64,000 bases of DNA from the NCBI GenBank assembly GCA_020348925.1, contig CP070758.1, forward strand, positions 2,557,688 to 2,621,687, written 5' to 3'. Under the pieces are notes generated by a model, which had not been told where the DNA came from, made no database searches, and saw only the letters and a list, made by a program, of their open reading frames with translations. The position numbers and the translations under genes were made by a program. Every line of letters begins with the position of its first letter. The stretch's first letter is position 1. Origin of the DNA: Gemmatimonadota bacterium (lineage in GTDB: Bacteria > JBHIER01 > G020348925). Shown here piece by piece: positions 1 through 23,818 of the stretch.

Positions 1-2781
1 AATCTGAAGAAACTGGAGATATTGTCGCTTGGAGATAACGTGCTCTCTGGCACGATTCCACCGGAAGTCTGTAACTTGACGGCGTTGCAAGTTCTCTCCC
101 TCACAGGAAACCGACTATCCGGTTCCATCCCTCTTGGAATAGGTAACTTGACAACTCTGCAGATATTATCACTTGGGGGTAATCAGCTCGAAGATTCCAT
201 TCGATATGAAATCGGAAATCTGACAGAATTGAAGGTATTGTCACTTGGGGGCAATCTACTCTCAGGTATCATCCCGACGAAAATTGTCAACCTGACAGAT
301 TTAGAGGCGTTGCAACTTGGCGGTAATCAGCTTACAGGTCCCATTCCACCTGGAATCGGAAGTCTGTCGAAATTGAAGGTAATATCGCTGGGAAGTAATA
401 TGCTTTCGGGTCCCATTCCGGCTGGAATTAGTAGCCTGACACAATTGGAAGCCTTATATCTATTGGGCAACCAACTTTCAGGTTCCATTCCTTCCGGAAT
501 AAATAACTTGATAAAATTGAAAGTAATGTACTTAGGGAGCAATCAACTCTCGGGTTCCATACCGGCTGGAATCGGCAGCCTGGCGGAAATGGAGAACTTG
601 CACCTTGGTGAAAACCAACTCTCCAGTACCATCCCGTCAAAAATTGGAGACCTGTTAAAATTAAAGAGATTGTATCTTCAAAATAACCAGTTATCCGGTC
701 CGATCCCTTCAAGTTTCACAAATCTGACGGCTCTAATAGACAGCGTTAGCCTTCATGTCGGTTATAATAAATTATTTAGTGATGAACCTACTGTGATTGA
801 CTTTCTGAATATAAAAGATCCAGACTGGGCACAGACCCAGACCGTGGCCCCGGCCAATATCATTTGTAGCACCATTGAAATCACAAGGGTTGAATTGTCG
901 TGGGACCCCATTCTGTACACGTGGGATAGTGGTGGGTATATCGTCTCCTATGGTTTGGAAATCGGGGGGCCCTATGATGTCGTTGACACTACTGCAGGCA
1001 AAACCGTAACAAACCTGACAGCCTTCGGCCTGAGTAAAAATACACAATACTATTTTTATATAACCACGCATACCCCGCCGCATGGCTTTCAACAGAATGA
1101 TCTTATCAGCGCCCCAAGTGAAACACTATCAGTAAGAACTCTGCCCGATGCGGATGGAGATGGGATTGCGGACGGCGATGATAACTGTCCAGACGATGCC
1201 AATCCTGATCAGGGTAATTCGGACACAGACTCTCATGGTGATTTGTGCGACAACTGTCCAAATGAGAACAATGAAGATCAGGCTGACGATGATGGTGATG
1301 GTGTGGGCGATGCCTGCGACGTCTGCCCTGGCTATGACGACACGCAGGATGGCGACGGTGACGGAGTCCCGGATGATTGTGACAATTGTCTGAGTGATTA
1401 CAACCCGGGACAGGAGAACGCGGATGGTGACGCTTTAGGGGATTCGTGCGACAACTGCCCGGAACATTACAACGACCCTCCTCAGACGGACTCGGACGGA
1501 GACGGGGTTGGGGACCTCTGTGATCTCTGTCCTGGATTTGACGATACCCAGAACGCCGACACGGATACCATTCCGAATGGATGTGACAATTGCGATGATG
1601 TCTACAACCCCGACCAGGCGAATTCAGATGCCGATACGCTGGGCGATGCCTGCGATAATTGTCCGGATGATGACAACGACGACCAGGTCGACGGGGACAG
1701 CGACGGAGTGGGCGATGTGTGCGATAACTGCCCATTGGTGCCAAATCCCGGCCAGGGGGACGCCGACGGCGACGGAGTAGGAGATCTCTGCGAGACGGAC
1801 GCCGACGGAGACGGTATCGCCAATGATGAGGACAATTGCATGACCGTCCCGAATCCGGATCAAGCCGATGGGGATGGCGACGATGTGGGCGATGTGTGCG
1901 ACAATTGCCCGGCAGTGTTCAATCCCCGCGATGTTGATATTGACGGCGACTTAATTCCTGATCAGCCCGATTCAGACGCCGACTCAGTCGGCGATGGCTG
2001 CGACAACTGCCCGCTCGATTTCAATCCTATTCAGGAGGATATTGATGGCGATGACATGGGCGATTCGTGCGACTACTGCTGGAATGATTTCATGAATGAC
2101 GAGGATAGTGATGGAGTCTGCGGTGACGTGGACAACTGCCCCAGGATCTCAAATCCCGGCCAGGAGGATGGTGACCATGACGGCGTGGGCGATGTGTGCG
2201 ATGGCTGTCCATCCGATTCGACAAAGACCGAGCCGGGCATCTGTGGCTGTGGCGTGCCTGATACTGACGGGGACGGTGATGGCCTCATACACTGCGACGA
2301 CAATTGTCCGGACGAATATAACCCGACTCAGGCCGATGCGGACGGAGACAGTGTTGGCGATGTGTGCGATAACTGTCCGGATATTGCCAACGCCGATCAG
2401 GCCAATTCGGACAGTGACAGCCTCGGTAATGATTGCGACAACTGTCCGACCGTGTATAATCCTGATCAGGTGGACAGTGACGGGGACGGGAGAGGCGACG
2501 CCTGTGAAGGTCTCAACGGCGATGTAAACGACGACGGGCGGATCGACATTCTGGATGCGCTGGCCTTAATTGACCACATTTTGGAGATCCAGCCCCTGGA
2601 TGAATATGCTCTTAGTCTGGCAGACTGTAACGGTGACGGGGATATCGACATTCGGGACGTATTGGGCATCATAAATGTTATTCTGGGGATTGGTGAGTGT
2701 ACGCCGGGAGTCAGCAAACAGGAAACGGTCCATGAGACGACCCCTGAACCCAAGGAGTTTATGAAGCCGCTAGGGAAATAA
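1..2781 (+). CDS. 5'-truncated extracellular protein: plant-type LRRs + FN3-like domain + many thrombospondin type-3 Ca-binding repeats + C-terminal dockerin
   Basis: Frame is open from base 1 (NLKKLEILSLGDN...). ~24-aa repeats LxxLxLxxNxLSGxIPxxIGxL; FN3-like segment (LSWDP...Y.VSYG...L..NTQYYF); repeated DxDxDGVGDxCDNC; two Ca loops GDVNDDGRIDILD and ADCNGDGDIDIRD. Confidence 0.88.
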   Translation, partial: NLKKLEILSLGDNVLSGTIPPEVCNLTALQVLSLTGNRLSGSIPLGIGNLTTLQILSLGGNQLEDSIRYEIGNLTELKVLSLGGNLLSGIIPTKIVNLTDLEALQLGGNQLTGPIPPGIGSLSKLKVISLGSNMLSGPIPAGISSLTQLEALYLLGNQLSGSIPSGINNLIKLKVMYLGSNQLSGSIPAGIGSLAEMENLHLGENQLSSTIPSKIGDLLKLKRLYLQNNQLSGPIPSSFTNLTALIDSVSLHVGYNKLFSDEPTVIDFLNIKDPDWAQTQTVAPANIICSTIEITRVELSWDPILYTWDSGGYIVSYGLEIGGPYDVVDTTAGKTVTNLTAFGLSKNTQYYFYITTHTPPHGFQQNDLISAPSETLSVRTLPDADGDGIADGDDNCPDDANPDQGNSDTDSHGDLCDNCPNENNEDQADDDGDGVGDACDVCPGYDDTQDGDGDGVPDDCDNCLSDYNPGQENADGDALGDSCDNCPEHYNDPPQTDSDGDGVGDLCDLCPGFDDTQNADTDTIPNGCDNCDDVYNPDQANSDADTLGDACDNCPDDDNDDQVDGDSDGVGDVCDNCPLVPNPGQGDADGDGVGDLCETDADGDGIANDEDNCMTVPNPDQADGDGDDVGDVCDNCPAVFNPRDVDIDGDLIPDQPDSDADSVGDGCDNCPLDFNPIQEDIDGDDMGDSCDYCWNDFMNDEDSDGVCGDVDNCPRISNPGQEDGDHDGVGDVCDGCPSDSTKTEPGICGCGVPDTDGDGDGLIHCDDNCPDEYNPTQADADGDSVGDVCDNCPDIANADQANSDSDSLGNDCDNCPTVYNPDQVDSDGDGRGDACEGLNGDVNDDGRIDILDALALIDHILEIQPLDEYALSLADCNGDGDIDIRDVLGIINVILGIGECTPGVSKQETVHETTPEPKEFMKPLGK

Positions 2782-2815
2782 TTCCTCATGGTAATATAGC
2801 CGAATATAGCGGTAT

Positions 2816-2837
2816 AGCCGGGTCGGACCAAGGTAAC
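2816..2837. repeat. Short copy of intergenic direct repeat (AGCCGGGTCGGAyCAAGGTAAC)
   Basis: Matches 3081-3102 at 21 of 22 nt. Confidence 0.8.
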
Positions 2838-3080
2838 CTGCTGATAGTCAAAGGATATTGTCCCACATGTAGGCGTTTACAACCTTAAAACCCCATTTTC
2901 AGGGTCGAAATCACTGGTGTAAGCAACCTTCGGCTCTTTTCGCGGAAATGAATTCCCTTCACCATCTACATGATACTCTTTGCCTCGGATGCCTGATTTT
3001 ACTTTCGTCTCTGCCACAAATCCCTTATTTCCAATAGCTCTGCTCTCAGTCCATAGGCTGTCCCGAACAGCTTCCCTGCC

Positions 3081-3188
3081 AGCCGGGTCGGATCAAGGTA
3101 ACTGATTGAAATGCAACGAAAATGTGTTGAAAATACTATCTGATTTCGCCTTAGAATGACAATTTTGACATGAAAATAAGAGATTTAA
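3081..3188. repeat. ~100-bp degenerate direct repeat, copy A
   Basis: 3087-3188 aligns without gaps to 3367-3468, with about 13 mismatches in 102 nt (hand count). Confidence 0.9.
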
Positions 3189-3366
3189 CATCTCGGTAAT
3201 TCTACGATTTCCGAGATGTATCAGGGGATTTGGGGGAAAGGATACGCTTTCCCATAAGGGGTAACAGGATTTCGATGTGATCTGGCGGAGCATCTACATC
3301 CGCCATTTCCCGAAAGCTTTTTAATCGTAATTATAGCCTAACAATTGGATCAAGTAGTATGGCAGT

Positions 3367-3468
3367 GTCGGGCCAAGGTAACTGATTGATATGCAAGGTA
3401 AATGTGTTGAAAATACCCTCTGATTTCGTCTTAGAATAGCAATTTTGACATGAAAATGAGCTATTTAA
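3367..3468. repeat. ~100-bp degenerate direct repeat, copy B
   Basis: Ungapped match to 3087-3188 at a 280-nt offset. Confidence 0.9.
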
Positions 3469-4018
3469 AAGAGTGTGAAATCCGAAGTGGTTAAAAGGAT
3501 GGTAACTGTATAGGAATGACCTGTGGTTGGTGGTAGGGAAGGGCAGTTTGGCGAAGAAAGGAAGCTGTCCCTGCAAAACTGCTCGTATCTGAGAGGTATG
3601 TATTTTACTCCCAAAAGAGTGCATTAAGCTATAAAAACATCCATATTTTAGATACTAACCACTGAATAGCAACACGTTAGATTGGCCCGACTCCGGACGT
3701 CACATGATGCCGAAACAATATCAGACGCATGTGTACAATTGGAATCTCGAAAATTCATCCCCTCAAAAACAACTTCCCATTCAATTTTTCCCTCTGTCGA
3801 AGCTTCTCCGTGTTCTTCAGAATATGAACCTGAGGCGTCTCTATTTACAATTTTTGTCTGTTCTAAAATGGTGTACAAAAAATTACTATCCATTGTATGG
3901 ATATATACTGTAAAGTAATTAAATACTTAAAAAAATTCATATATTAATATATGTAAAAGTATGTCATTATTTGTATCAAAAATGAGGATATCCCTTCGAT
4001 AATGTCACCATTCTGCTC

Positions 4019-4046
4019 TTGACAAATAAGAAAAAGTATGTAGTAT
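4019..4046 (+). promoter_or_regulatory. Putative sigma70-type promoter upstream of the decarboxylase locus
   Basis: TTGACA-N16-TAGTAT in AT-rich DNA, ~560 nt before the CDS at 4603. Confidence 0.4.
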
Positions 4047-4602
4047 TGAAACAGTTTCCTCAATTTTTTTGAGAATCACACCATTTTTATGGAAGAGGGA
4101 TACAGGCAAAAGGAGATTTTCTTCGTTACAATTCAATAGCGTGTGGGTTATCCAGCTGTGAACAAATGAGGCACTTTCAGTGGCAGAATGGCCTCTCCCT
4201 TGGGGCAAGAGCATTCTCTGTCTCAGAGCTTATTGTTATTCTTTATCGGAATCCAGATGTGAACGGGATGAAGGATAAATTTCACTTTTTTTCAGAAGTT
4301 CAAAGAGAAGGGTCTGATAATGAGTTTTGTGCATTGCGGAACGCATAACCTAAAATTGCAGCCTGTTTCCCTTGAACCAGCTTCTGGTCAGCTGTGAAAT
4401 GGTTTTCGACTGGATCTTCGGTAGGGAGTTCAAAAATTTCGTTCCCATCCTTTGTAGGTGGCAATATTTCACTCGGCGATAGCGTGTCAAGAAATATATC
4501 GTACGAAAACGGGGTGGACTGCACATGAACAGACACCAATCGTAACTGCTCACGGCAAACAGAGAACAGTGAGCCCCATATCAGGGGATAGGAGGAGAGA
4601 AA

Positions 4603-6570
4603 ATGTCCGATAACAAGAATATCGAGAAGAGTAAAGGCTGCGCGGATCCGGACGGCAATCCCAATATCCCGTATGGCCCCGAACAGAAGCCGTGGGGGGA
4701 GTTGGTGCCGGGGGGCGCGGATATTACCGGGCCCAGTGAGGACCCAATCGATGTGTACCCGCGTGTGCCGCCACCAAATTTGACAGAAAAATTTCCCGAG
4801 ATTCACTACAGGAAGTTTGAAATCCCACCAAAGGGTCTGACAGACGGCCAACGAAAGGATGCTCTGAAGGAGTTCAGGGATTTTGCGGAGGAGCAGCACA
4901 GGTGGTTTACCGGTTACCAGACCAACCAGAACCAGCCATACTCTCTGCGCCTCTCGTGGCTTCTGGATATGCATACGAACAATGTTGGCGATCCCTTCCA
5001 AACCGGCATATTCACGCTGAATACCAAGTTCTGCGAGCGCGCTGTCCTGGACTACTTTGCCGCGTTGTGGAATGCTCCGTGGCCGCACCACGACGATACC
5101 ATCACAGAGAGGTATCCGGACCGTTACTGGGGCTATGTGTTGTCCATGGGCTCCACCGAAGCAAATGTCTATGGGCTCTTCAACGCGCGCGACTACCTCA
5201 AGGGTCGTGCGCTCATTGAGGACCCTGAAACGGAGCCGCTGGAGAAGAAATTCATGTACGCCGATCCGCTTTCCAAGCCCGACAACCCGAATGCCTACAA
5301 ACCCATCGTCTTCTATTCCCAGGATACGCACTATTCGGTGGTCAAGGCCGTCCGTATTTTGGAGTTGACCACGTTCTACCAGGAAGGGCGCATGAAGTAT
5401 CCGGGCCAATGTCCCATCACCGAGAATGGGGAATGGCCCAAGGAGGTCCCGTCGCAGGATATTGATAACGGCAATTCCGGGACGATCGATGTTTCAGCCC
5501 TGAAGGAGCTCGTTCACTTCTTCGTCAAGCGCGGTTACCCTCCCCTGATTGTGCTCAACTTTGGCTCGACGTGGAAGGGCGCTTATGACGAAGTGCCTGC
5601 CGTAAACACGATGCTCAGGGATTTGCGCTATGAGTTCCCCTGGGTGTGGGAGCGAAGGGTTCACTACGATCCCGACAGGCCCAAGCTCTATGACGTACGG
5701 CGTGGTTTCTGGCTGCACGTGGACGGTGCCCTGGGCGCGGGCTACATGCCCTTCGTCGAGATGGCCTATAATCAGGGCAAGATCGAGTGGCGGGGTCCGA
5801 TTTTCGATTTCCGCAACGAGGCGGTCATGAGCATCTGTACGTCAATGCACAAGTGGTTCGGTGCCCCGTGGCCTGGGTCGGTCTACCTGACGCGCACCGG
5901 CTACCAGCTCAGGCCGCCAACCACGCCCAGTTACATTGGCGCGGCGGATACAACCCTGGGCGGCTCACGAAATGCGTTCTCGTCGGTGATCTTCTGGGAC
6001 TACTTGTCGCGCCATAGCTACCAGGACAGCATGCATGAGGTCCTTGAGTGCGAGGAGGCTGCAAGCCACCTGGTGAGTGAATTGAAAAGCCTGGAGAGTG
6101 ACCTGAAGAAAAAATTCGGTGACGAGGTCGATTTGTGGATCGCCCGCTCCAAGCTGTCCCTGGCCGTTCGCTTCCGCCTGGTGAACCCGACTATCAAATA
6201 CAAGTTTACGGTCGACTCCGAGCGCCTGTGGGTACCCATTTCCGAAACTGAGGAACAGGAGCGCACGTACTCGCATGTCTACGTCATGCAGTCATTGATG
6301 GCAGAAAAAAAGAGGCCGGTGAAGGATGAAAAGAGGAAACCGGAGGCGGTGGAAAGGTATAGAATCATCGACGAATTGATGAAGTCCATCCGGAAGGCCT
6401 GCAAGGATGACTGGCACCATGCGTTTCCCGAATGGGACGGCGACCAGCCCAATCCCGGACGCACGAAACCGATCACCGCACCCGCTCGCGCCAAGGACAA
6501 CGTCATCATGTTCGTCCCGCATGAAGGCCGGGGCCTGGGCTCGTTTGTGCATCCGTCCAAGCGCGGTTAG
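4603..6570 (+). CDS. Group II PLP-dependent amino-acid decarboxylase, histidine/serine decarboxylase-like
   Basis: SD GGAGGAG. Motifs GYQTNQ, NNVGDPF, ERAVLDYFA, WGYV.SMGSTEAN.YGL, THYS..K, LHVDGALG, SMHKWFG (PLP lysine), TLGGSRN. Confidence 0.88.
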   Translation: MSDNKNIEKSKGCADPDGNPNIPYGPEQKPWGELVPGGADITGPSEDPIDVYPRVPPPNLTEKFPEIHYRKFEIPPKGLTDGQRKDALKEFRDFAEEQHRWFTGYQTNQNQPYSLRLSWLLDMHTNNVGDPFQTGIFTLNTKFCERAVLDYFAALWNAPWPHHDDTITERYPDRYWGYVLSMGSTEANVYGLFNARDYLKGRALIEDPETEPLEKKFMYADPLSKPDNPNAYKPIVFYSQDTHYSVVKAVRILELTTFYQEGRMKYPGQCPITENGEWPKEVPSQDIDNGNSGTIDVSALKELVHFFVKRGYPPLIVLNFGSTWKGAYDEVPAVNTMLRDLRYEFPWVWERRVHYDPDRPKLYDVRRGFWLHVDGALGAGYMPFVEMAYNQGKIEWRGPIFDFRNEAVMSICTSMHKWFGAPWPGSVYLTRTGYQLRPPTTPSYIGAADTTLGGSRNAFSSVIFWDYLSRHSYQDSMHEVLECEEAASHLVSELKSLESDLKKKFGDEVDLWIARSKLSLAVRFRLVNPTIKYKFTVDSERLWVPISETEEQERTYSHVYVMQSLMAEKKRPVKDEKRKPEAVERYRIIDELMKSIRKACKDDWHHAFPEWDGDQPNPGRTKPITAPARAKDNVIMFVPHEGRGLGSFVHPSKRG

Positions 6571-6805
6571 CGTCATACTGGAACTGATTGGATGACTGTC
6601 AGGTCTTCTGCCTGAGGAATAAAAAGGAGACACTCTTTACAATACAATTTACCACATAAGGTTACATGTATTTTTTCTAAAGGCGGCAATCTTCTTTTCA
6701 GATTATCGTGGTTCGGTTGAAAGATTTGAGTGAAAAAGAACCATAGATTTTGAATCCCAGATGGACGAAAGAAAAAATGTATTTTCCAAATAGGAGGATG
6801 AGAAC

Positions 6806-8998
6806 GTGATCCTGTGGATTCTAAGTTTCTTGGTCTTGGCTCTTCTGCTTCTTTTCATTGATTACAGAAAGTTGGCAGCTCTCAAAAAACTGGTATTGCC
6901 GTTTTTCATCGTATTGTGTCTGTCCTGCCTGATTTTAACAATAATCCTCATATACGCGCACCTTAGATATAAGAACGAAATCATTCAATCGACCAAGTCC
7001 AGCTTGATCAGCCTCACGGTCGAAGCAAGAAAAGGGATAGAAAGAATCCTGCAGGAAACTATGGACGCGGCCGAATCCATCGCGGATGACGTGACCTCGG
7101 GAAAACTGAAAGACGACGAGATACTCGACAGGCTCAAAACAACAGCAGAGCAAAACAAAAATTTTTACGGAATCAACATAGCTTACAAACCATATGCCTA
7201 TTCACCTGACAGGAAATTGTATTCACCGTACTTTGGAAAAAAAGGTGGCGTGCTTACGTTTTCACAACTTGATAAGATTTACGACTACACCAAACCGGAG
7301 TACGAATGGTACACGCTCGCCATGGAGAAGGGACCGAGGTGGTGCGAACCATATTTCGGTGAGGCCGGGCTTACCTTGATCAGTACCTACTCTGCTCTTT
7401 TCTATGAAACCGATACTGCAGCGCAGAGAAAAGATCCCATAGGGGTCGTGACGATTGATATCTCCCTGGATCAGATTGGGAAGATCATTCGCTCCCTGGA
7501 CCTGGGACCGAGTGGCTTCGGGGCGCTGTTGTCTCAAAAAGGACGCTATCTGTACCATCCCAATAACGAGTACGTGTTGAGCGGAAAGACGATCCTCGAG
7601 TTGGGCGAGGAGCTCAACGACGCAGACAGATTATAATTGGGCGAAAAAATATTGAAAGGGGAGCGGGGGATTCTCGACCATGTCAGCTCCACAACCGGTC
7701 TGTCCGCATGGCTGATTTACGAACCCGTGCCCCTCAACGGCTGGTCGTTGAATAATACCTTTATCAAAAGCGATATAGAGATGAATGTGGATTCCCTCCG
7801 AAAACAGCTGGTGCGGATATGTGTTGTTGCACTCCTGTTCCTCTGGTCTCTGGCGTCAATTGTATTGGGAGTTCATCGAGGGAATGAGAAAAGACTTTGG
7901 TTGATGTCTGCAGTAACTGCCGTTCTATTTTTGGCTGGAATCGGATACGTCTGGCACTTAGCTCTGAGTTTCAACAGGGATAATGATGAAGATACTGTAA
8001 GAATCACAACCCAGCCGACCTTGAACACTCTCATGAACAAGTATACCGAAGAGTGCGCTGGACGACACACCGAGCCGCCGGTGTATATTCGCACCGGCAT
8101 TTTTCTCGAATCGGTCAGGCTTACCGGTGCCTGTGACGTAGCCGTTTCGGGTTTCATCTGGCAAACATACAGTGACAGCATGCACGGGGGCTTGGCCCGT
8201 GAGTTTCAGATCGGCGATGCGCAAGATGTAAAAGTCACCGAGATCTATCGTCACAAGGAAGGGGATGAGGAGATCCTTCGATGGTCTTTTCAAGCAAGTC
8301 TGACCGAAGGTTTTGACGATTCCGAATATCCGCTGAATCAGGAGACAATCTCGATTCCACTCCTACACAAAGATTTAAACCATAACGTGGTCTTGGTTCC
8401 CGATCTGAGGGCCTATAGGGTGACCAGCCCAACCTCTCTTCCGGGCCTGGAGAAAGATATACTCGTTCCAGGATGGACGGTGATGCGATCCTTTTTCAAT
8501 TTCAGAAAAAGGACGTACGATACTGATTTCGGAGTGGAGCGATCGGTCCTCAAGGAGAATTTTCCCGCACTCGCCTTGAGCGTGGTTGTCAGGAGAAATT
8601 TTCTGGATTCCTTCGTTTCATGTCTTACGCCCCTCATCGTTGTCGCCCTTCTTCTTTTCAGTATATTCTTTCTATCGACAAAAGATCCTGAGAAGATAAA
8701 GCTGCTCGGTGTGAGTCCTGGACGTTTTTTAGGGTTTTGCGCAGGTCTTTTCTTCGTCGTGGTGTTCAGTCACATCGGAACGAGGGAGGCGGTTTCCGCA
8801 AAAGAGATCTTCTACCTGGAGTATTTCTACCTTGTGATGTATCTGACGCTGCTGTGGGTCTCGGTGAACGCCATTTTACATATCCTGGCGGATAAGATTC
8901 TCTTTATCCAGTACAGTGATAATCTCATTTCGAAGCTGCTCTATTGGCCCGTACTGCTTGCGCTCCTGTTCGGGATCACCGTAGTATTCTTTTATTAA
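6806..8998 (+). pseudogene. dCache-fused pentameric ligand-gated ion channel, interrupted by one in-frame TAA at 7634-7636 (nonsense mutation or sequence error)
   Basis: ORFs 6806-7636 and 7637-8998 share a frame and the break falls inside the Cache domain. Order: N-terminal TMs, dCache (YEWY...W.EPYF...GVVTIDISL...G.YLYHPN), 2 TMs, pLGIC-type ECD (GIFLESV, GFIWQTY, EYPL Pro-loop, GWTV), VVRR pre-M1, four TM helices. Confidence 0.8.
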
Positions 8999-9214
8999 GA
9001 GCACATCTGGAGACTCTGTGAAATGTATACGTTACCTGCGATGAAAGGCGGTCATGGTGGAAAAGACAGTGATGGTAAAAATGGTGACGGTATCCTTATT
9101 GCGTGTGGGATAATGAGGATCGTCTGACTCTGTTCATTCCCAAATGATAGTTATTACAAGAGAATTTCTGAATGAAAATACGTTTTCGTGAAATTGGAGA
9201 GAAAGGAGATTCAC

Positions 9215-11125
9215 ATGAAAAAGACAGACGTTGGTGCCCTGTTTTTGGGGCCGAAATCTGAAAATCACAAGTTTTTTAAGGAGATGCTCAATTTTCTCAT
9301 CGATGAGCATATCCACTGGCGGCGGGATTTTCATCCTGATGATAAACCATACATAAGCTTCCCTGAACAACATGAGAAGCTGTTCCAGAGTACTATTGAC
9401 AGGACGCAGGATGTATTGCTTAATCTTTCTTCCATGCTGAAGGCCAGTTCGGAGCCGTGGTTTTCCCCACGCTACCTGGGACAGATGAACAGCGATATTC
9501 TGATGTGTGCCGCCCTGGCCTATATGGCCACTGTTCTCTACAACCCGAATAACTGCGCCTACGAAGGTTCGCCGGCAACCACTCCAATGGAAATTGAAGT
9601 AGGGAAACAACTCGCAGAAATGCTGGGATATAATCTTGAAAATGCTTGGGGGCACATTACGGCCGACGGTACGATTGCAAACTATGAGGGCCTGTGGTTC
9701 ATGAGAAACATGAAATCATTCCCCCTTGCCATCCGAGAGGTGGACCCGAATTTTCCTGGCGTGAAAGGGAAGACGGAATGGCAGCTGTTGAACATGCCCA
9801 CTCGCCGTATCCTGCAACTGATCACGGATACAGAGAAAGTTGGGAAAAATCAAGAGTTCTTTGAACGATGTCGCGACAGGTCTGTTCGTGGTACTGGAGA
9901 GACCGATGCCCTGGGCGTGCTTCTTGTCCCCCAGAGCAAACATTATTCCTGGACAAAAGCGGTGGATGTCCTCGGGATTGGTCGGCATAACCTCATACCC
10001 ATTGACGTTACAGATAATTTTCGGATGGATATCGATGAGTTGAAAAAGGAGATTGAGAACCAAGCGGCTCACAAGATTCCGATTCTGGGCGTCGTCTCCG
10101 TCGTAGGCACGACTGAGGAGGGAGCGGTTGATGAAGTCCATAGAGTTGCAGAGCTCCGCAGGAGGTACGAAAAACAGGGGGTTTCATTCTACTACCATCT
10201 CGATGCAGCCTACGGCGGGTATACCCGTACCATCTTTTTCGATGAAGAGAACAGTTTCATGCACTATGACGGCTTGAAGACGTTTTTACACGAGCAGGGC
10301 GTTATCCACCAGGATGTTGCGTGGCCTCCGAAGGACGTGTATGAGGCCTATAAAGCCATGCCTGAGGCTGATTCCATCACAATCGATCCCCATAAGATGG
10401 GGTACGTTCCCTATCCAGCCGGGGCCATTGTCGTCAAGGATAAACGGGTCCGGGATCTTGTTTCCTACTTCGCTCCGTATGTCTTTGCTGAAGAGAAAGG
10501 GGAGGAAGATCCTCAGCTTCTCGGTGCATATATCATGGAGGGCTCAAAACCGGGTGCTGCGGCTGCATCTGTCTGGGCTGCGCATCGACTCGTCCCGCTC
10601 AATGTGACGGGGTACGGCAGACTTATCGGAAGGAGTGTTGAGGTGGCCCATCGATTCTACAATTCACTTCACAAGCAAAGATCTTTCAAGGTTTCATATG
10701 AGGATAAGAAAGGGAAGAAGAGATATCGAACATTCAAGGTCGTGCCCCTAACCAGACCCGACTTTAATATGGTCTGCTGGGCATTTAACGAAGTGGGAAA
10801 TACCAGCCTGAGGAGGATGAATGGCCTTACTTTAGCACTTTTTAAGAAATTTCAGTATATTGATGGTCCTGTCTATTATGACGACTTCTTGACATCTCAT
10901 ACCGAATTCACCCTTGAAAACTATGGCCAAGCCCCGGAAACATTCCTGAGAAAACTGGGCATTTCTACAAAAGGATACACTGATAAGCAAGGTGTCTGGG
11001 TGCTCCGCGCTTCCCTCTTGACCCCTTTTCTGGATGTCGAGAAGGTCTATAAAGACTATTGGACACGGTTTATGAAAACCATAAAGAAGACCATAGCCGA
11101 AGTAACATCTGTACCGAGAAAATGA
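9215..11125 (+). CDS. tdc: Tyrosine decarboxylase-like PLP enzyme (Enterococcus/Lactobacillus TDC family)
   Basis: SD AAGGAG before ATG 9215. Motifs ALFLGPKSEN, GHITADGTIANYEGLW, VPQSKHYSW.KA, VVGTTEEGAVD, HLDAAYGGY, SITIDPHKMGY, LLGAYIMEGSK, LNVTGYG. Substrate not proven. Confidence 0.85.
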   Translation: MKKTDVGALFLGPKSENHKFFKEMLNFLIDEHIHWRRDFHPDDKPYISFPEQHEKLFQSTIDRTQDVLLNLSSMLKASSEPWFSPRYLGQMNSDILMCAALAYMATVLYNPNNCAYEGSPATTPMEIEVGKQLAEMLGYNLENAWGHITADGTIANYEGLWFMRNMKSFPLAIREVDPNFPGVKGKTEWQLLNMPTRRILQLITDTEKVGKNQEFFERCRDRSVRGTGETDALGVLLVPQSKHYSWTKAVDVLGIGRHNLIPIDVTDNFRMDIDELKKEIENQAAHKIPILGVVSVVGTTEEGAVDEVHRVAELRRRYEKQGVSFYYHLDAAYGGYTRTIFFDEENSFMHYDGLKTFLHEQGVIHQDVAWPPKDVYEAYKAMPEADSITIDPHKMGYVPYPAGAIVVKDKRVRDLVSYFAPYVFAEEKGEEDPQLLGAYIMEGSKPGAAAASVWAAHRLVPLNVTGYGRLIGRSVEVAHRFYNSLHKQRSFKVSYEDKKGKKRYRTFKVVPLTRPDFNMVCWAFNEVGNTSLRRMNGLTLALFKKFQYIDGPVYYDDFLTSHTEFTLENYGQAPETFLRKLGISTKGYTDKQGVWVLRASLLTPFLDVEKVYKDYWTRFMKTIKKTIAEVTSVPRK

Positions 11126-11134
11126 GATCGATGC

Positions 11135-11389
11135 GTGCGGGGTACTGGTGGGAAAACAGTCCGAAGATCATCGAACTTTCCCAAAATATCCTATCCGACC
11201 TTTATGGATGGGATCATTAGCGGGGCATACATTTTTATGGCCCTGGCTGTGCTCGAAAATGTCACCTCCCACGTTTTGCGAACGCGACATATGGGGAAAC
11301 AAGCCCTGAGACTCGATCGCCTTTCAAGGTGGTTGTTCCCCATAGCGTATCTCACCTCGTGGATTGTTATGACGCTCGTGTTTATGTAG
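11135..11389 (+). pseudogene. C-terminal remnant (M2-M3 loop, M3, M4) of a GLIC/ELIC-like pLGIC
   Basis: FPKISYPTFMD resembles the pLGIC LPxxxYxTxxD loop. It is followed by a TM helix and DRLSRWLFPIAY (M4 DxxSRxxFP motif). No ECD, M1 or M2 is present upstream. Confidence 0.75.
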
Positions 11390-11626
11390 AATTACCTTTT
11401 CTTGATCCCCTTTGATATGAGACCGTGAAACGGTGGCCCTCACTGTTGGTTCGCTCCCCTTGATGAATCAAACGCCGTTGCGTTATACTATCGATGGCTT
11501 GCTTATGAGACTGGTCTTAAGTGCCCGTCCCGTCTCGATTGAATTATCGATCCATAAAAGTTTGAATGAGTTATACCCATCAGAATTTCATTGTCAACGT
11601 ATCATCCCAATAGAACAACAAAAAGC

Positions 11627-11657
11627 TTGACATGGGAAATAATTATCATAATATAAT
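11627..11657 (+). promoter_or_regulatory. Putative sigma70 promoter for the 1391-aa receptor gene
   Basis: TTGACA at 11627 followed by overlapping TAATAT (N16) and TATAAT (N19) boxes. Confidence 0.45.
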
Positions 11658-11927
11658 GATGTGTATTTTTAATATGTTGAGGGATTGCTTGTATGTCAAG
11701 TTCAATGGCAAGGAATACATCATTAACGCTTCCCCTCGGGATTGTGAGTAACTCTCTGTAAGTGACAGATAGTTACGAATGCGTTTGATTATGAAGATCG
11801 ATGATATCATGAACGTCTTTTTCCCGATTGACCGAAAAATGTGTGGAATCCCATTCTTTTTGCCTCAGGAAAAAAATAAGGAGCATCATCCGTTTGGATC
11901 CGTTGAACCGTAATTGCGGGGGGAACG

Positions 11928-14900
11928 GTGCCTAAAAAGAAGAGATCATCAGACCTTGCAAGGTCGCAAAAAGTGGCTGCGAAACTGCATCCTTCCCCTT
12001 GGATTCGCTATTTCGCTTCGATTCTCCTTCTTATCCTGGTTGGATTGGGGGGGTTCTATTTTATCATCGTCCAGGAGCGGAAGGACTTGCAGTCGCAATA
12101 TCTGCTCCGTGTTCTCAGCACCGCCGGCCAGAATGTGGGAGAGACCATCACTGGTCTGCGGGGTAATGTTAAGAAGGCAGCAGAGACCAAGAAAGAAACC
12201 GACAAGACACTTCAAAAAACCATTGAGGGAAAACTGGCACTTATTCCCAATCTGATCAAGTATCCACAAAGCGACTTTGCCACATGGTCTGAATGGATAA
12301 CACTGAAAGATCCTGACAGCTTGGAGAATCCCAAAGTCGATATAACGATCAATTACGAAAATGGAGAATACGTTGTTACTTTTACGGTCAAAGCATGCAC
12401 TCTCAAAACCGAAAAGAAAAGTTTCTCAGATACCCGTGAAAAATTCAAAGATGTTTTCCTGACCCACGCCAGACTCAGAGATCTGATTTTGCCCTCGCTT
12501 CCTGATGATGTCTTCGATGGGGGCGTTGTCGTGGCCCGAAGAAACGAAATGGTTCTCCTGCAAAAGGGTGGTGCAGCCGCCCACCTCGTGCAACTACCGA
12601 GAGCGAAAGTGACAGAGGAAGAGGCGTCCTCAGGCGTCACTGATTCCTGCGTCACCACCCAGATCCGCGACGTCGAGATCGCCGGCGTCAAATACAAATT
12701 GTTTCTTCAACCCTTTTGTATCCCGGTGGATGTAAGATGGGTCGATTCAACTCAGGACACCACCCGCCATGCACCGGAAAAGGTCTGGTTTATGGGAGGA
12801 CTTATCCCAAACGCGACCTTCAGGGCGAAAACAATGGCTGTCTCTCCGACCTTCGTCCTGTTCGTTGTGTTCCTGCTTGTCCTGGGGTTGCTCTGCCTGC
12901 CCTTTCTGCGAATCCGCTTCATTGGGTTGCGAGAAGGTCTGCGGGCCCACGATGTGTTGGTGCTGGCCGTCGCACTCATGGTGGGTTGTTCTCTCGTCAC
13001 TTTTGCCGTCATCCATCTTTTCACAGCTTTGACGGAAAGGGAGACACGAGCACGTCACCTGACCATCATTGCCCGTAGAATCGATTGTTTGGTTTCGTCG
13101 GAACTGGACTCGTTGCACTTGGAACTTATCGAGTTGACGAACACGGCCAACACTCTGCGCAGACAAGGCACCAGGCCCAACATTCTTGTTGAGGAAAAGG
13201 TCAGAAATCCCCATTTCGAGATGGTCTGGGGAATGGACAAAAACGGTTGGCAGACTTGGAAGTGGAGCGTTAAGAGTACGACGACTCCTGTGTCGAGTTT
13301 TCCTGAAAGAGAATATTTCAGGTATGCAAGAGATTATGATCTGAATCTGTTCTCTCCCCTTCACCATACAGGACGAAATGTGTTAGATGATACGACCAAG
13401 GACGTAAAATTTCTCAGGGGACGATATATCCAGTCGATTCGCTCAAAAACCACCGGTGAAGTGTACGCAATTCTCTCGCTTCGAATGTCGAGTGAGGACT
13501 TCACAGGTTCGATTGTTTCCGTGATCGAGTCGCCGATGTTGAGCCTGATCGATCCCGTCATGCCCCCGGGATACAGTTTCGCCGTCATCGATCGGAAGGG
13601 TGACGTACAATTCCATTCCGACAAGGATCGGAATCTGAGAGAGAATTTTTTTGTGGAACTCGGTTCGGACGAAGACGTGAGGGCCGCTGTTTTTTCAGGA
13701 ACCGAGAAGAACGTGCGATTCAAATATCGAGCCGAGCCGCGAAGCGCTGTGGTAACACCCCTGACCCATACACCATGGACCCTCGTCGTATTTACGGACG
13801 ACCGAATACTGAGCCATCTGGATCTTGAAACGATGACGTTGTCCCTCAGCCTTTTCGGCGCGTATCTGATTCTCTTTCTATTGTTCTGTCTCGTTCTGTC
13901 TCTGGTGTCCCTTGCAATCGCCTCATTTCGCCGTCGAGATAGAAACGATTCAGGGAAAATTCGTTCCGTAGGAGCGATCGACAGAATAGCCCGCTGGTGC
14001 GGGCGATGCGACATTGCCCCTGGCGAAGCCCGTTCCATGTGGTTTTGGCCTGATGGAACAAAGCAAAAACATTACAGAATTCTGCTCTGGATCATGGCTT
14101 CGTTTATCGCCTTGTGGTGTGTCGGTTCTCAATGGCGACCCGCGTGGATGGTCTGGATATCACCGGCTCTGTCCCTGATTCTGATAGTGGTAGTATATGT
14201 TCTTATCCGATGGAAAAATGTTTCTCGTGGCGAAACGGATAAGGCTGGTGAGAGAATGACATCCCTGAAGGTGCGGTGGTTGTACGTGGTGACCATCATA
14301 GGATTTCTTTTCAATATCGCCATCCTGCCCGCTCTCAGTTTTTATCATCTGATCCATTCCGAAGAGGTCATCCTGTACACAAAAATGCACCAACTCCAAC
14401 TGGCTGAGTCTTTACGGAATAGGGTCGATCGCCATGTTGCGCGTTATCGAAAAATCGGGCTGAGCGATGAAAACGAACAATGTGTTCGGTTACGGCTCGC
14501 GCTTTCGGATATGCGTGAACTTTCTATCCAGAACGCACCCGATGTCTATACGTTGAACTCGTATGTCAAAGAATCCAGGAACGATTCTCAGTCTACGCCC
14601 CGGCGCGACAAGCATCAACCATCCGAAGAGCGTTTCAAACAGGTGTGGATCGACCGATTAAGTCAGGCGGGATTGTTACCGAGTTACAACGAATTCGCCG
14701 CCGTGACCAGAACCCTGACCAGCTCACAGGACGGAGATCACAACAGAAGCTGGCAGTTCGTATCGCCAGATAATTTGCTGAGATTGAACATCACGGATTT
14801 TCGGCCGTCCGTTCCTGTAGGCAGAATCGATAAGACACGCACCATTGAGAATACCCATCAGATCAACCTGACCATAGAGACTCCCCTCGATTTTCAAAGG

Positions 14901-16103: not shown

Positions 16104-16114
16104 GGTGCAGAGAT

Positions 16115-16146
16115 GAACCTCACCGGTGTGATCGGGTGAGGTTCTT
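16115..16146 (+). terminator. Hairpin after the receptor gene
   Basis: Perfect 10-bp stem GAACCTCACC / GGTGAGGTTC, with only a short U tail. Confidence 0.55.
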
Positions 16147-16534
16147 ACACTTCGGTCTTGATCTCAGAGGAAATGGTCTTGAGACCACTGTAGGTTTTTT
16201 TCAATCCACCACTTTTTTTGCTCTACCCCTCACTCTGCTCTCAGATCTCATTTTATCACAAGATTTCCCGTTGAAGCCTGTTGAACATTTTTCGGATTTG
16301 GGACTCTGAACCGGTTCATACGGAAAGCTCAATACTCTCCGGTAGGTCGCGAATTTCACTGAAACTTGTGGACTTACATTCTGTCTAATCTTTTTGAGGG
16401 TATTACAATGCTCCAAACCTCGTGGGAGGAGGGATGAACATATGACACGATTCTATTGAATTCTTTCGGATAATCCTATCCTAAGGAGATCGAGGTGGTT
16501 CGTTACTTACTCACTTTTTCCGAGGAGGTGTCTG

Positions 16535-19513: not shown

Positions 19514-19551
19514 ATCGATCACGAATTTCTTATCAAAGGGGGGCAACAGTT

Positions 19552-22904: not shown

Positions 22905-23818
22905 ATGATGAAGTGTTTTCATCTTCTTCTCACTCTGGTACTTCTTTCTTGCCTTGTCGTTGCCGTCGAAGCATCGCCACAGGAAGCACACCCCTATCTC
23001 ATCAAAATATCCCGGGCTGATTCGAACGTCGTTACGGTTCTTCAAGAACGAAATATTCCTGTCTATTTGAAATTGAAGAAATGGTACTTCGCAGGAGCAC
23101 ATGCACCCGATTTCATTTATCTCAGGGAGAAGGGAATAGAGTATGATGTGATTGATGAGGAGGCGTGGTCGAAACCGTACTATTTAATAACCAGACCTCG
23201 GAGAGGGGAGCTCGGTGTTATTCCCGAGGTCGGCAGAATTCTTTTTCAGGAGGATAAGGAGGCGATTCTCAAAAAAGGTAGCAATCAATTTCTCGAACTG
23301 GTCAGTGCCGGGTATACATTGACGCGGCTTTTTCAGAGATCGCACCCAATCTTGGAAAGGAAACACAGTACATTACCTTCAATTGTCTGGGAAGCCGGGT
23401 CAGACGACGTAATCGAGACTATCGTCAATAATGTTTCCGAGGACAGTCTTCGATCATATGTTCAGCGTTTGCAGGATTTTCAGACCCGGTATTTCGAAAC
23501 AGATTCGATCAAGGCATGTGCTCGCTGGTTCCGAAACACCCTTCTCGATTTCGGATACACCGATGTTGTCTTCGATACGTTAACCAATCAGCCACTTGAT
23601 CATGCAATCTGGAACGTAATCGCCACCAAGCCCGGTTTTTTCTATCCTGACAGTATCGTCATAATAGGTGGCCACTTTGATTCCATCGTTCGTGATGGGA
23701 CGAATCCGTATGTCTGGGCGCCCGGGGCAGGCGATAACGCCTCCGGGACGCGGTGGTGACGGTCAATATCGTCTGGGGTATGCATGAGCCTGATGAGGGG
23801 GAAACGACACGGGCTGAT
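22905..23818 (+). pseudogene. M28 peptidase paralog with a ~2-kb internal deletion, fused out of frame to a dockerin remnant
   Basis: SD AGGAGG and ATG at 22905; reads to GAGDNASG, then stops at 23759. DNA from ~23747 encodes DAVVTVNIVWGMHEPDEGETTRAD, which is mid-dockerin in the paralogs. Confidence 0.88.

Follow-up and report, generated by a model that had tools for sequence, protein, structure and literature searches.

Two amino-acid decarboxylase genes and two sequences of pentameric ligand-gated channels (pLGICs) were found to lie together within 6.8 kb, and we consider it plausible, but unproven, that this locus joins the synthesis of an amine to its sensing. The clustering itself is non-random and goes beyond chance. 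In the genome of 5.04 Mb only three genes match PF00282, two of which are located here, together with both of the two pLGIC-related sequences of the genome. This concentration counts for a coupling of enzymes and channels. The four ORFs are all on the + strand and follow each other as MetDC-like decarboxylase, Cache-pLGIC, TDC-family enzyme and pLGIC stump, which is the gene order that the first-pass annotation had given for the window (the whole stretch of 64,000 nucleotides analysed). The enzymes belong to two different subfamilies, and so do the channels; the cluster is therefore not a tandem duplication.

The four-gene stretch is a strain-specific cluster. Spacers of 216–235 nt and a GC3 of 0.735 in the first enzyme gene against 0.57 in the channel gene (0.54–0.60 among the neighbours) argue against a single inherited operon, and we regard the arrangement as a loose neighbourhood that came together recently, not as a conserved operon. 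Between positions 4200 and 12000 the frequency of promoter-like and terminator-like sites was not above that in shuffles. The non-coding stretch of 1.8 kb upstream holds dispersed repeats, and eight M28-dockerin peptidase paralogues are located directly downstream.

Table 1. Features of the decarboxylase and channel locus; positions refer to the window.
Feature	Position	Strand	Basis or remark
Group II PLP-dependent amino-acid decarboxylase, MetDC/HDC/SDC clade, 655 aa	4603..6570	+	PF00282 and PDB 7cif
Spacer, decarboxylase to channel gene	6571..6805		235 nt, AT-rich, GC 0.37
Cache-fused divergent pentameric ligand-gated channel subunit	6806..8998	+	730 codons including internal TAA; GTG start behind AGGAGG
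Hydrophobic segment(s) at the N-terminus, most of the double-Cache sensor (periplasmic)	6806..7633	+	PF22673, PF02743, PDB 3lic
In-frame TAA in the assembly; TCA (Ser) in the run X2 contig	7634..7636	+	Assembly sequence versus Logan contig
Cache end, membrane hairpin, pLGIC ectodomain, M1-M4	7637..8998	+	AlphaFold2 model, Foldseek
Spacer, channel gene to TDC	8999..9214		216 nt, GC 0.41; unique in genome
Tyrosine-decarboxylase-family (TDC) enzyme, 636 aa	9215..11125	+	TIGR03811, PF21391, PDB 7cwx
Classical pLGIC, 84-codon 3' stump with M3-M4	11135..11389	+	NF033918 partial match

The product of the first gene is predicted to be a cytoplasmic PLP decarboxylase, nearest to the L-methionine decarboxylase (MetDC) of Streptomyces. 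It matched the Pfam model Pyridoxal_deC (PF00282) with 36.7 bits (cut-off 27) and the NCBIfam histidine decarboxylase model with 175 bits, which is under the cut-off of 305. Among solved structures the best relative was L-methionine decarboxylase 7cif (E 8e-122, residues 56-567), ahead of serine decarboxylase (1.6e-21) and then histidine decarboxylase (1e-15). The label 'HDC/SDC-like' given earlier therefore fits the clade, with MetDC as the nearest characterised enzyme. Lys417 in the motif S-x-H-K was invariant in 24 homologues, no signal peptide was evident in the N-terminus, and the closest homologue was found at 81%.

The ORF of the TDC-family enzyme opens at GTG 9188. Its probable start is ATG 9215 with GGAGA upstream, a length that is supported by the database protein P0059 of 636 aa. 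The product reached 740 bits with TIGR03811, under the cut-off of 905, and 130 bits with tyr_de_CO2_C (PF21391); PDB entries 7cwx and 5hsi were matched with E about 1e-183 (7cwx 7e-184). Lys394 in D-P-H-K was invariant in 28 homologues, and the closest homologue stood at 72%. In 48 TDC loci, AA_permease_2 accounted for 31 of the 76 neighbour ORFs scanned; in the window there is none. Positions 1-22500 contain neither a permease ORF nor one for an aminoacyl-tRNA synthetase, in agreement with the earlier claim that an antiporter and an aminoacyl-tRNA synthetase are missing. Judged by its neighbours, the window TDC has lost the permease usually accompanying its clade, and such a loss counts for the coupling.

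The gene between the two enzymes is a single frame that is interrupted by one TAA in the assembly. Its product is a membrane protein in which a membrane hairpin links a periplasmic double-Cache sensor with a divergent pentameric-channel module. The part before the TAA matched MCP-like_PDC_1 (PF22673) with 63 bits and dCache_1 (PF02743) with 45.1 bits (cut-off 45), and among solved structures PDB 3lic (E 5e-17), PctB (2.5e-9) and PctA (7e-7). The part behind it had been proposed to match a pLGIC domain model or the pLGIC fold, and it was the fold that was recovered; the channel module is so divergent that the Pfam pLGIC models miss it. In the AlphaFold2 model (pLDDT 82.2) this piece of 453 aa is predicted to comprise a two-helix membrane hairpin (51-111), a beta-sandwich ectodomain (about 120-320) and the helices M1-M4 (322-452). 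Foldseek searches with the model retrieved GLIC, ELIC and DeCLIC, each at probability 1.00 and E about 1e-10, with a target-normalised TM of 0.62-0.68 for GLIC. Of 54 sequences, 53 keep the Pro-loop residue Y231 and all 54 keep P232. Cache Pfam domains are carried by 52 homologues of 603-741 aa, and the closest homologue was found at 67%.

If the TAA were real and fixed in the strain, both channels would be dead and the locus would be a decaying relic in which only the two enzymes work. The assembly itself reads TAA, the gene caller of the protein database split the gene there (giving P0005 of 453 aa), and the second channel is certainly dead. Against this, the only contig covering the site, a Logan short-read contig from the sediment run X2 (record 8, spanning 7484-10570, depth 7.83), reads A>C at position 7635, which gives TCA (Ser). 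X2 was the sole contig source for this position and may be the source sample of the genome, hence it is not independent. Serine is also found in the same column of the closest homologue (P0006). Furthermore, changes at conserved positions are not in excess: the window product differs at 4 of the 80 columns with a conservation of 85% or more, and at least 15 of 53 homologues have 6 or more such deviations. We regard a fixed stop codon as very improbable; the TAA most probably reflects either strain variation or a mistake in the assembly. From its sequence the Cache-channel gene looks live, encoding a protein without decay.

Of the classical pLGIC gene behind the TDC gene only the last ~73 codons are left, the rest being deleted, and this stump is dead. 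It aligned with positions 248-305 only of the 305 positions of NF033918 LGIC_1 (E 3.5e-7). A representative search with it gave 126 matches, C-terminal in the full-length ones; in all eight full-length matches checked it corresponded to the last ~70 residues, and all eight carry Neur_chan_LBD and Neur_chan_memb. The stump covered positions 288-360 of the 361 in profile A3 and was the sole match genome-wide, so the missing 5' part of its gene was not found elsewhere in the genome with this profile. Its closest relatives are P0181, P0183 and P0185. The homology begins near codon 12 (about position 11168), ~43 nt past the TDC stop.

For the origin of the stump we considered that a classical pLGIC was once the tandem partner of the Cache-pLGIC, and that the TDC gene, cut off from its permease, was inserted at the 5' part of this partner; the stump would therefore be a companion of the Cache-channel, not of the TDC. 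A classical pLGIC of ~370 aa directly follows on the same strand in 15 of 80 Cache-pLGIC loci, and in one further locus it lies 3.2 kb downstream, compared with no pLGIC in 80 TDC loci. The closeness of the junction to the TDC stop (about 43 nt or less) and the missing permease, a normal neighbour in this TDC clade, point the same way. What makes this origin unlikely in our judgement is that the stump is only 22-28% identical to the partner channels (E 0.02 or worse) versus 33-55% to its best database relatives. The 15 loci are moreover gammaproteobacterial, Prolixibacteraceae or unclassified MAGs rather than the closest relatives, with Cache-pLGICs only 37-43% identical to that of the window, and a 5' remnant was seen neither by eye in 8999-9214 nor elsewhere in the genome. 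Such an origin would be compatible with an amine loop and with a mosaic accessory region alike.

Linkage of decarboxylases and channels was surveyed in other genomes, and neither pairing is conserved. Among 80 Cache-pLGIC loci none had a MetDC-like or TDC gene, nor did any of 75 further loci that added 50 new contigs (0 of 130 contigs in total). None of the 80 TDC loci had any pLGIC, none of 80 MetDC-like loci had a classical pLGIC, and none of 10 classical pLGIC loci, present in 8 of 401 sampled genomes, was near a PF00282 gene. In the MAG JAIQZQ01 both the enzyme and the channel family are present, on separate contigs. With these queries all three genes were missing from the single genome of the same family (87% complete). 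The lack of conserved linkage counts against the coupling. One of the 80 MetDC-like loci, L175 from an unrelated Deltaproteobacteria MAG, does have a Cache-pLGIC: the MetDC-like gene (53% identical) lies 189 nt upstream of the channel gene (32% identical) on the same strand, thereby repeating order and orientation of the window, and this recurrence counts for the coupling. An IS200-like transposase is found just upstream of the L175 pair, and a relative of that genome has the channel and lacks the enzyme. The decarboxylase-channel pairing is suggestive but rare. The 'two decarboxylase-channel pairs' proposed in the first-pass annotation are an overstatement, as the second channel is a dead 84-codon stump. 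The TDC and the stump no longer work as a pair, and the dead second channel counts against the coupling.

In the amine loop that we propose, the two decarboxylases would turn amino acids into primary amines, possibly from hydrophobic and aromatic amino acids freed by the adjoining secreted M28 aminopeptidases. The amine would get to the periplasm and bind the Cache pocket, where an aromatic pair and an Asp may hold the amino group and a Tyr takes the place of the carboxylate-binding Arg. Binding could then open the pentameric pore and alter membrane potential or ion content, for which the first-pass annotation had put forward cell-cell signalling as a possible use. In the HMMER alignment the pocket reads Y-E-W-Y where PctA and PctB have R-P-W-Y, with P-Y and the Asp kept; the Tyr replaces the Arg with which amino-acid sensors bind the carboxylate. 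Amine-type dCache_1 domains are described as retaining two aromatics and the Asp and losing the position that is positive in the amino-acid motif, as far as the available text goes (PMC10589655). The pocket therefore looks amine-type rather than amino-acid-type, which counts for the coupling. The family consensus is PEYxWY, and these residues are conserved family-wide whatever the neighbours, therefore the ligand class is not tied to this enzyme. It counts against the loop that the enzymes are cytoplasmic and the sensor periplasmic, with no exporter evident.

Alternatively, the genes could be part of a mosaic accessory region without any ligand-receptor relation, being neighbours only because foreign genes accumulate here. 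The decarboxylases would then act after the array of secreted aminopeptidases, in the catabolism of amino acids or in pH balance, and the Cache-channel would sense an environmental compound of its own. The near-complete absence of linkage in the surveyed loci, the lack of all three genes in the same-family genome, the aberrant GC3 of the first enzyme, the upstream repeats, the transposase at L175 and the downstream peptidase paralogues all fit such a region. Peptidases also recur beside MetDC-like genes elsewhere (Peptidase_S10 three times, Zn_peptidase, M24 and M48 once each among 49 neighbour ORFs). On the other side, one would not expect an insertion hotspot to gather two dissimilar decarboxylases along with two dissimilar pLGICs, nearly the whole set of the genome; the enzyme-then-channel order is repeated in L175, and the TDC is without the antiporter that should go with a role in catabolism or in generating pmf. 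We hold a mosaic region to be possible but somewhat doubtful, and keep the amine loop as our tentative reading.

Parts of this picture are already in print, namely Cache-fused pLGICs (2004) and a decarboxylase adjoining ELIC (2011), to judge from the accessible portions of both papers. The first-pass annotation had suspected a previously noted link between pLGICs and decarboxylases, and rightly so: in the portion available, the ELIC paper suggests that the ligand may originate from a neighbouring gene for a putative amino-acid decarboxylase, an enzyme that its authors propose to process the ligand, and describes opening of the channel by primary amines (Zimmermann & Dutzler 2011, PMC3119659). 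This precedent counts for the coupling. ELIC of Dickeya (Erwinia chrysanthemi) thus resembles the window in that a prokaryotic pLGIC gene adjoins a PLP amino-acid decarboxylase gene. ELIC is a plain channel of ~320 aa without Cache domain, whereas the live channel of the window is Cache-fused; the plain pLGIC is intact as ELIC and only a stump in the window, and the ELIC neighbour is GAD-annotated (putative glutamate/amino-acid decarboxylase), in contrast to the MetDC-like and TyrDC-like enzymes found here.

Compared with 7cif from Streptomyces sp., the first enzyme shares the H-K-W PLP site and has about 55 more N-terminal and 90 more C-terminal residues. The TDC has the family and the TyrDC C-terminal domain in common with the Enterococcus/Lactobacillus TyrDC operons (7cwx, 5hsi), but scores below the equivalog cut-off, is 46-48% identical to the Enterococcus enzymes and has no adjoining permease, unlike those operons and its own clade.

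Cache-fused pLGICs were predicted from sequence by Tasneem, Iyer, Jakobsson & Aravind (2004, PMC549065). Their MCP-N and Cache-fused 'ART-LGICs' of Methanosarcina, Cytophaga and Microbulbifer, a class of predicted proteins, share the architecture of the window channel, in which an N-terminal sensor of Cache type is followed by the pLGIC ligand-binding domain and the four TM helices of the channel. The operons reported there include PBP-II, a Na+/H+ symporter and a Cache gene, and the word 'decarboxylase' does not occur in the available text of that paper. The dCache_1AM sensors (Cerna-Vargas et al. 2023, PMC10589655) likewise keep the aromatic pair and the Asp and lack the positive residue; our comparison covered these positions of a motif that also includes an insertion with an Arg/Asp pair and Met and Ser positions. 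The outputs listed in the accessible part of that survey are kinases, chemoreceptors, cyclases and phosphatases, and 'ion channel' is absent from the same text. GLIC, which is proton-gated, and DeCLIC, which is calcium-modulated (PDB entry titles), share the fold of ectodomain and M1-M4 with the window channel at 12-16% identity. DeCLIC also has extra N-terminal domains, but in neither protein is the ectodomain preceded by a Cache domain or a TM hairpin, whereas the window channel has both.

Four ORFs in the window follow each other head to tail: a decarboxylase, a pentameric channel fused to a Cache sensor (Cache-pLGIC), a tyrosine-decarboxylase-family gene (TDC) and a pLGIC remnant (the stump). 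All four are on the plus strand, and the co-oriented order proposed in the first-pass annotation stands. The first three ORFs are separated by spacers of 235 nt and 216 nt, both AT-rich, and only 9 nt lie between the last two. GC3 was 0.735 in the first enzyme versus 0.54–0.58 in the other three genes. A second copy of the 8999-9214 spacer was absent from the genome, and Rfam matched nothing in 1-20000. Counts of promoter-like sites (10; shuffles, 8.1) and terminator-like sites (9; shuffles, 7.1) did not inform on the operon structure. Two of the three PF00282 genes of the genome are found within 6.8 kb of its 5.04 Mb, and both of its pLGIC-related sequences lie inside the same 6.8 kb. Since the enzymes come from different subfamilies, and the channels likewise, the cluster is not the result of a duplication.

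Features of the cluster and its surroundings (window positions; empty cells, nothing reported)
Feature	Positions	Strand or setting	Basis
Protein with LRR, fn3, numerous type 3 thrombospondin repeats and dockerin, 919 aa	22-2781	upstream of cluster	Pfam
Stretch of 1.8 kb without convincing ORFs	2782-4602		
Four ORFs, head to tail	4603-11389	+	ORF calls
First enzyme, MetDC-like decarboxylase, 655 aa	4603-6570	+	ORF calls
Cache-pLGIC, assembly TAA at 7634-7636	6806-8998	+	ORF calls
TDC (second enzyme)	9215-11125	+	ORF calls
Stump, 3' end of a classical pLGIC, 84 codons	11135-11389	+	ORF calls
ORF of 1391 aa	11928-16103	directly 3' of cluster	
Eight full-length M28 peptidase paralogues, tandem	16535-42899	downstream	Peptidase_M28 and C-terminal dockerin in each

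The stretch preceding the first enzyme, which had no Rfam match, contains local direct repeats spaced 265-280 nt and an element of about 120 nt near 3185-3307 that matches 16 other, scattered places of the genome (74-91% identity). The sole Pfam trace in the large ORF following the stump was a weak Adeno_knob match (E 0.02).

The first enzyme and the TDC matched PF00282 with 36.7 and 105.2 bits, respectively (Pfam, cut-off 27). The first enzyme had been read as HDC/SDC-like. Its assignment to the group II decarboxylases holds, but it stayed below the histidine decarboxylase equivalog NF002748 (NCBIfam, 174.9 bits versus a cut-off of 305), and its best solved relative was the L-methionine decarboxylase (MetDC) of Streptomyces (7cif, E 8e-122, residues 56-567), followed by plant serine decarboxylases (1e-21) and then histidine decarboxylase (1e-15). 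The PLP-binding K417 (S-M-H-K) was invariant in 24 sequences, and the closest homologue of this enzyme, P0305, is 81% identical. For the second enzyme the description as TDC-like was correct at the family level, with matches to PDB 7cwx and 5hsi at E about 1e-183 and to the TyrDC C-terminal domain PF21391 at 130.5 bits. It scored 740.3 bits against the TIGR03811 equivalog, under the cut-off of 905.3, and is a member of the tyrosine decarboxylase family, yet outside the curated equivalog. Its PLP-binding K394 (D-P-H-K) was invariant in 28 sequences, and translation probably begins at the ATG at 9215. The closest TDC homologue, P0060, is 72% identical and comes from a 9.1 Mb genome. The absence of an antiporter, also noted at first pass, was confirmed, as no permease ORF was found within 1-22500. 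In the 48 closest TDC loci AA_permease_2 made up 31 of the 76 neighbour ORFs scanned, out of 87; among the 11 left out were some overlapping the TDC call. We concluded that the TDC has lost its customary permease partner.

M28 enzymes prefer hydrophobic and aromatic amino acids as substrates. The M28-dockerin paralogues downstream of the cluster are secreted aminopeptidases of about 980–1035 aa, 43–62% identical to each other, and would supply free hydrophobic and aromatic amino acids, which would suit both decarboxylases as natural substrates. Peptidase genes recur next to MetDC-like genes in other genomes. This recurrence speaks for reading the enzymes as metabolic, and gives a rationale also for a sensor of their products. 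The array additionally holds an N-terminal fragment at 22998-23744, and further related ORFs, up to 53445, have just the C-terminal approx. 400 residues in common with it.

The ORFs 6806-7636 and 7637-8998 form a single reading frame interrupted by the TAA. Its first part, 6806-7633, encodes a double-Cache sensor (PF22673, 63 bits; PF02743, 45.1 bits; PDB 3lic, E 5e-17) in frame with the channel module. With the TAA read through as X, the protein had 52 homologues of 603-741 aa, in which a Cache Pfam domain precedes an unannotated C-terminal half. The 7637-8998 product gave no match to the Pfam pLGIC models (Neur_chan_LBD, Neur_chan_memb) or, by sequence, to PDB chains, and reached only 13.7 bits against TIGR00860 (E 0.019, cut-off 280). 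An HMM of 26 classical bacterial pLGICs picked up the family weakly, the window copy at E 5e-4 and members to 1e-9. The 453-residue piece was modelled with AlphaFold2 from 54 aligned sequences (pLDDT 82.2). The model places the end of the Cache domain first, followed by a two-helix membrane hairpin, a beta sandwich (strands 120-320) and four helices (322-452). The top Foldseek matches of this model were exclusively pLGICs, namely GLIC, ELIC and DeCLIC, with probability 1.00, E about 1e-10 and a target-normalised TM versus GLIC of 0.62-0.68. The first-pass annotation had tied its channel assignment to a match of this product to Neur_chan_LBD or to the pLGIC fold; the fold was found, but the sequence match was not.

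The Pro-loop of pLGICs consists of an aromatic residue and a Pro, then an acidic residue. For the acidic residue a role is stated in a passage of Tasneem et al. 2004 (PMC549065). Of the 54 sequences in our alignment, 53 had Y231 and all had P232; the acidic position held E or D in 50, and Asn in the window's protein and two others. Relatives matching the channel half only were also detected (L296, L298, L301, L302, L305-L307, L309, L311, L312, L314-L320). They align to approx. residues 310-718 of the Cache-pLGIC from locus L175, a Deltaproteobacteria MAG, and are forms of this divergent pLGIC module that are Cache-less or differently headed. A search of representative proteins further returned P0202 (581 aa), an enzyme-channel fusion in which a Pro_CA beta-carbonic anhydrase domain (E 2e-38) precedes a full pLGIC, the LBD and the membrane domain both being present.

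Logan contigs from four sediment sequencing runs (X1-X4) were aligned over 4400-11600; no RNA run was listed as containing the stretch. The sole record across 7635 was record 8 of X2 (3087 nt, 7484-10570, depth 7.8), which has C at this position, changing the TAA to TCA (Ser). Contigs of X1, X3 and X4 miss 7635, and X3 and X4, from a second study, yielded short pieces only. The closest homologue of the channel protein (P0006, 67% identical, from a contig of 37 kb) has Ser in the same column, and the window's protein departs from the consensus at 4 of 80 strongly conserved columns, compared to 6 or more in at least 15 of 53 homologues. Because of the Ser codon in X2, the Ser in the homologue and the few departures at conserved columns, we concluded that the TAA reflects either an error in the assembly or a variant that arose recently in the strain, that the population probably lacks it, and that the Cache-channel gene is, as far as the sequences tell, live there. 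X2 comes from the study whose run covers the stretch best, and the genome may derive from this very sample; it provides a different assembly of the TAA site and not an independent confirmation of the organism. The Logan contigs also show the channel, TDC and stump in order and gap-free. At the TDC positions 9538, 10567 and 10824 both X1 and X2 depart from the assembly, and X2 does so additionally at 4712, 6983, 7635 and 8317. The assembly either represents a slightly different strain or has consensus errors.

The stump corresponds to just the last 58 positions (248-305) of the 305-position NF033918 LGIC_1 model, and to positions 288-360 of 361 in A3, one of four alignments turned into HMMs in this work. 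Against 1.84 billion representatives it gave 126 hits (E up to 1e-3), with best identities of 44-55%; P0181, P0183 and P0185 are its closest relatives. The full-length hits (about 320-410 aa) match at their extreme C-terminus, and both Pfam pLGIC domains were present in all eight that were tested. With three pLGIC profiles, neither another classical pLGIC nor the missing 5' part was found in the genome. The second channel is, judged from what is left of its gene, dead, so that of the two decarboxylase-channel pairs originally proposed one at most can work.

Two origins of the stump were considered. It could be a former tandem partner of the Cache-pLGIC, overrun when a lone TDC gene landed: a classical pLGIC of about 370 aa directly follows the Cache-pLGIC on the same strand in 15 of 80 Cache-pLGIC loci (HMM scan; L023-L025, L027-L030, L032-L035, L040-L043). 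The stump is, however, only 22-28% identical to those partner channels, versus 33-55% to its best database relatives. Orthology with them was rejected on this ground, and we kept the weaker, positional version as a rival. Alternatively, the stump may be the rest of a TDC-pLGIC pair after a 5' deletion, a pairing that finds no precedent in 80 TDC loci. Five of the 15 loci (L024, L028, L030, L034, L040) contain a third pLGIC-like ORF of about 390 aa. Loci with several channel genes may encode heteromeric channel sets; mostly homopentamers were expected in the relevant passage of Tasneem et al. 2004 (PMC549065).

The conservation of the linkage was surveyed by running HMMs from our alignments over all ORFs of at least 60 codons. 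Each of the two decarboxylase HMMs is specific to its subfamily; at E 1e-3 the MetDC-like gene is missed by the TDC profile. For the Cache-pLGIC, 80 of 156 relatives were covered first (flank up to 8 kb) and then 80 of 107, of which 75 were new loci, adding 50 new contigs; no MetDC-like or TDC gene was detected in these 80 and 75 loci. For the TDC, a search with the single protein found no close relatives in genome contigs and an alignment query was used instead; among the 80 loci surveyed, of at least 566 relatives, no pLGIC was found nearby. Among the 80 MetDC-like loci surveyed, of 301 relatives, one (L175) has a Cache-pLGIC, and none has a classical pLGIC or a TDC. None of 10 classical pLGIC loci, which came from 8 of the 401 genomes sampled, had a PF00282 gene nearby; where such genes were present in these genomes, they sit on other contigs. 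In an Anammoxibacter MAG the two families occur on different contigs, and a metagenome scan with P0006 returned one weak, unrelated Cache match only. The single-contig genome under study (G000, 5.04 Mb) had one same-family relative among the species genomes compared, the other relatives offered being related at domain level only, and its lineage is very isolated. In this sole same-family genome (87% complete) none of the three genes was found with these queries.

In L175 a MetDC-like gene 53% identical to the window's is followed, after 189 nt and on the same strand, by a Cache-pLGIC of 718 aa. This channel shares 32% identity with that of the window and is roughly equidistant from all other members of the family. 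An IS200-type transposase gene lies just upstream of the pair, and of 60 relatives of the L175 genome one has the channel family, with no decarboxylase beside it. The enzyme-then-channel order in an unrelated MAG suggests that the pairing either arose on two occasions or was retained from an ancient common ancestor. It is the sole recurrence in our survey, and the cluster is not a conserved module.

In dCache_1AA sensors, which bind amino acids, a residue with positive charge located two positions ahead of the W-Y pair has a functional role. Aligned with PctA and PctB, the Cache pocket of the channel protein keeps the W-Y pair, P-Y and the Asp, but has a Tyr (Y-E-W-Y) at the position of their Arg (R-P-W-Y), which places it outside dCache_1AA. 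The family consensus is PEYxWY. According to the motif descriptions in Cerna-Vargas et al. 2023 (PMC10589655), the positive position is specific to the amino-acid motif, and amine-type dCache_1 domains have the aromatic pair and Asp in common with amino-acid sensors, without the positive position. The full dCache_1AM motif as described there also includes an upstream insertion with an Arg/Asp pair, and Met and Ser positions (PMC10589655); of this motif we mapped the aromatic pair and Asp only, both of which are also in the amino-acid motif. ELIC, for which a passage of the 2011 paper reports opening by primary amines (PMC3119659), offers a precedent: its authors suggested that the ligand may come from a putative amino-acid decarboxylase encoded beside the channel.

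The clustering, the order in L175, the loss of the TDC permease, the Cache pocket and the ELIC precedent count for a coupling of enzyme and channel. Against it count the conservation of the pocket residues throughout the family whatever the neighbours, the separate spacers and differing gene composition, and the location of the enzymes in the cytoplasm and of the sensor in the periplasm, with no exporter evident. The channel itself as amine exporter was rejected on theoretical grounds, since a cation would have to exit against the membrane potential. The proposal that an amine is made and then sensed through the channel is supported in part. That an amine-making enzyme adjoins a probable amine-sensing channel we regard as plausible, if somewhat short of an even chance. 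The full scheme, in which a dedicated decarboxylase of this sediment bacterium produces a primary amine, hydrophobic or aromatic, that is sensed via the Cache domain of the adjoining pentameric channel, appears rather unlikely; such a pair would be a self-contained transmitter synthesis and ionotropic receptor in a deep-branching bacterium.

We know of no ligand for any Cache-fused pLGIC and, for bacterial pLGICs in general, ELIC included, of no established physiological ligand or role. The decarboxylase neighbour narrows the candidates to 3-methylthiopropylamine and related aliphatic amines, tyramine and phenethylamine, and with so few amines a first functional test of a class predicted 20 years ago becomes cheap. 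If the coupling is true, bacteria already paired an enzyme for transmitter synthesis with an ionotropic receptor; should it fail, the locus remains a clear case of look-alike modules arising through gene shuffling in accessory regions. The first reading is refined in three respects: the first enzyme resembles MetDC, the population probably does not carry the TAA, and the second channel is, on present sequence, dead.

Both main elements of the cluster have been described before. An earlier report of a link between pLGICs and decarboxylases had been suspected, and the 2011 ELIC paper (PMC3119659), in the passage on the neighbouring gene, is such a report; among the 10 papers found to contain both 'pLGIC' and 'decarboxylase' it alone concerns a bacterial channel. 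The architecture of the Cache-pLGIC has been in print since 2004: in the section concerned, Tasneem et al. (PMC549065) describe MCP-N and Cache fused to a channel module in Methanosarcina, Cytophaga and Microbulbifer. The window's protein resembles this Cache-fused ART-LGIC class in that a single polypeptide carries the Cache sensor and, C-terminal to it, the channel module.
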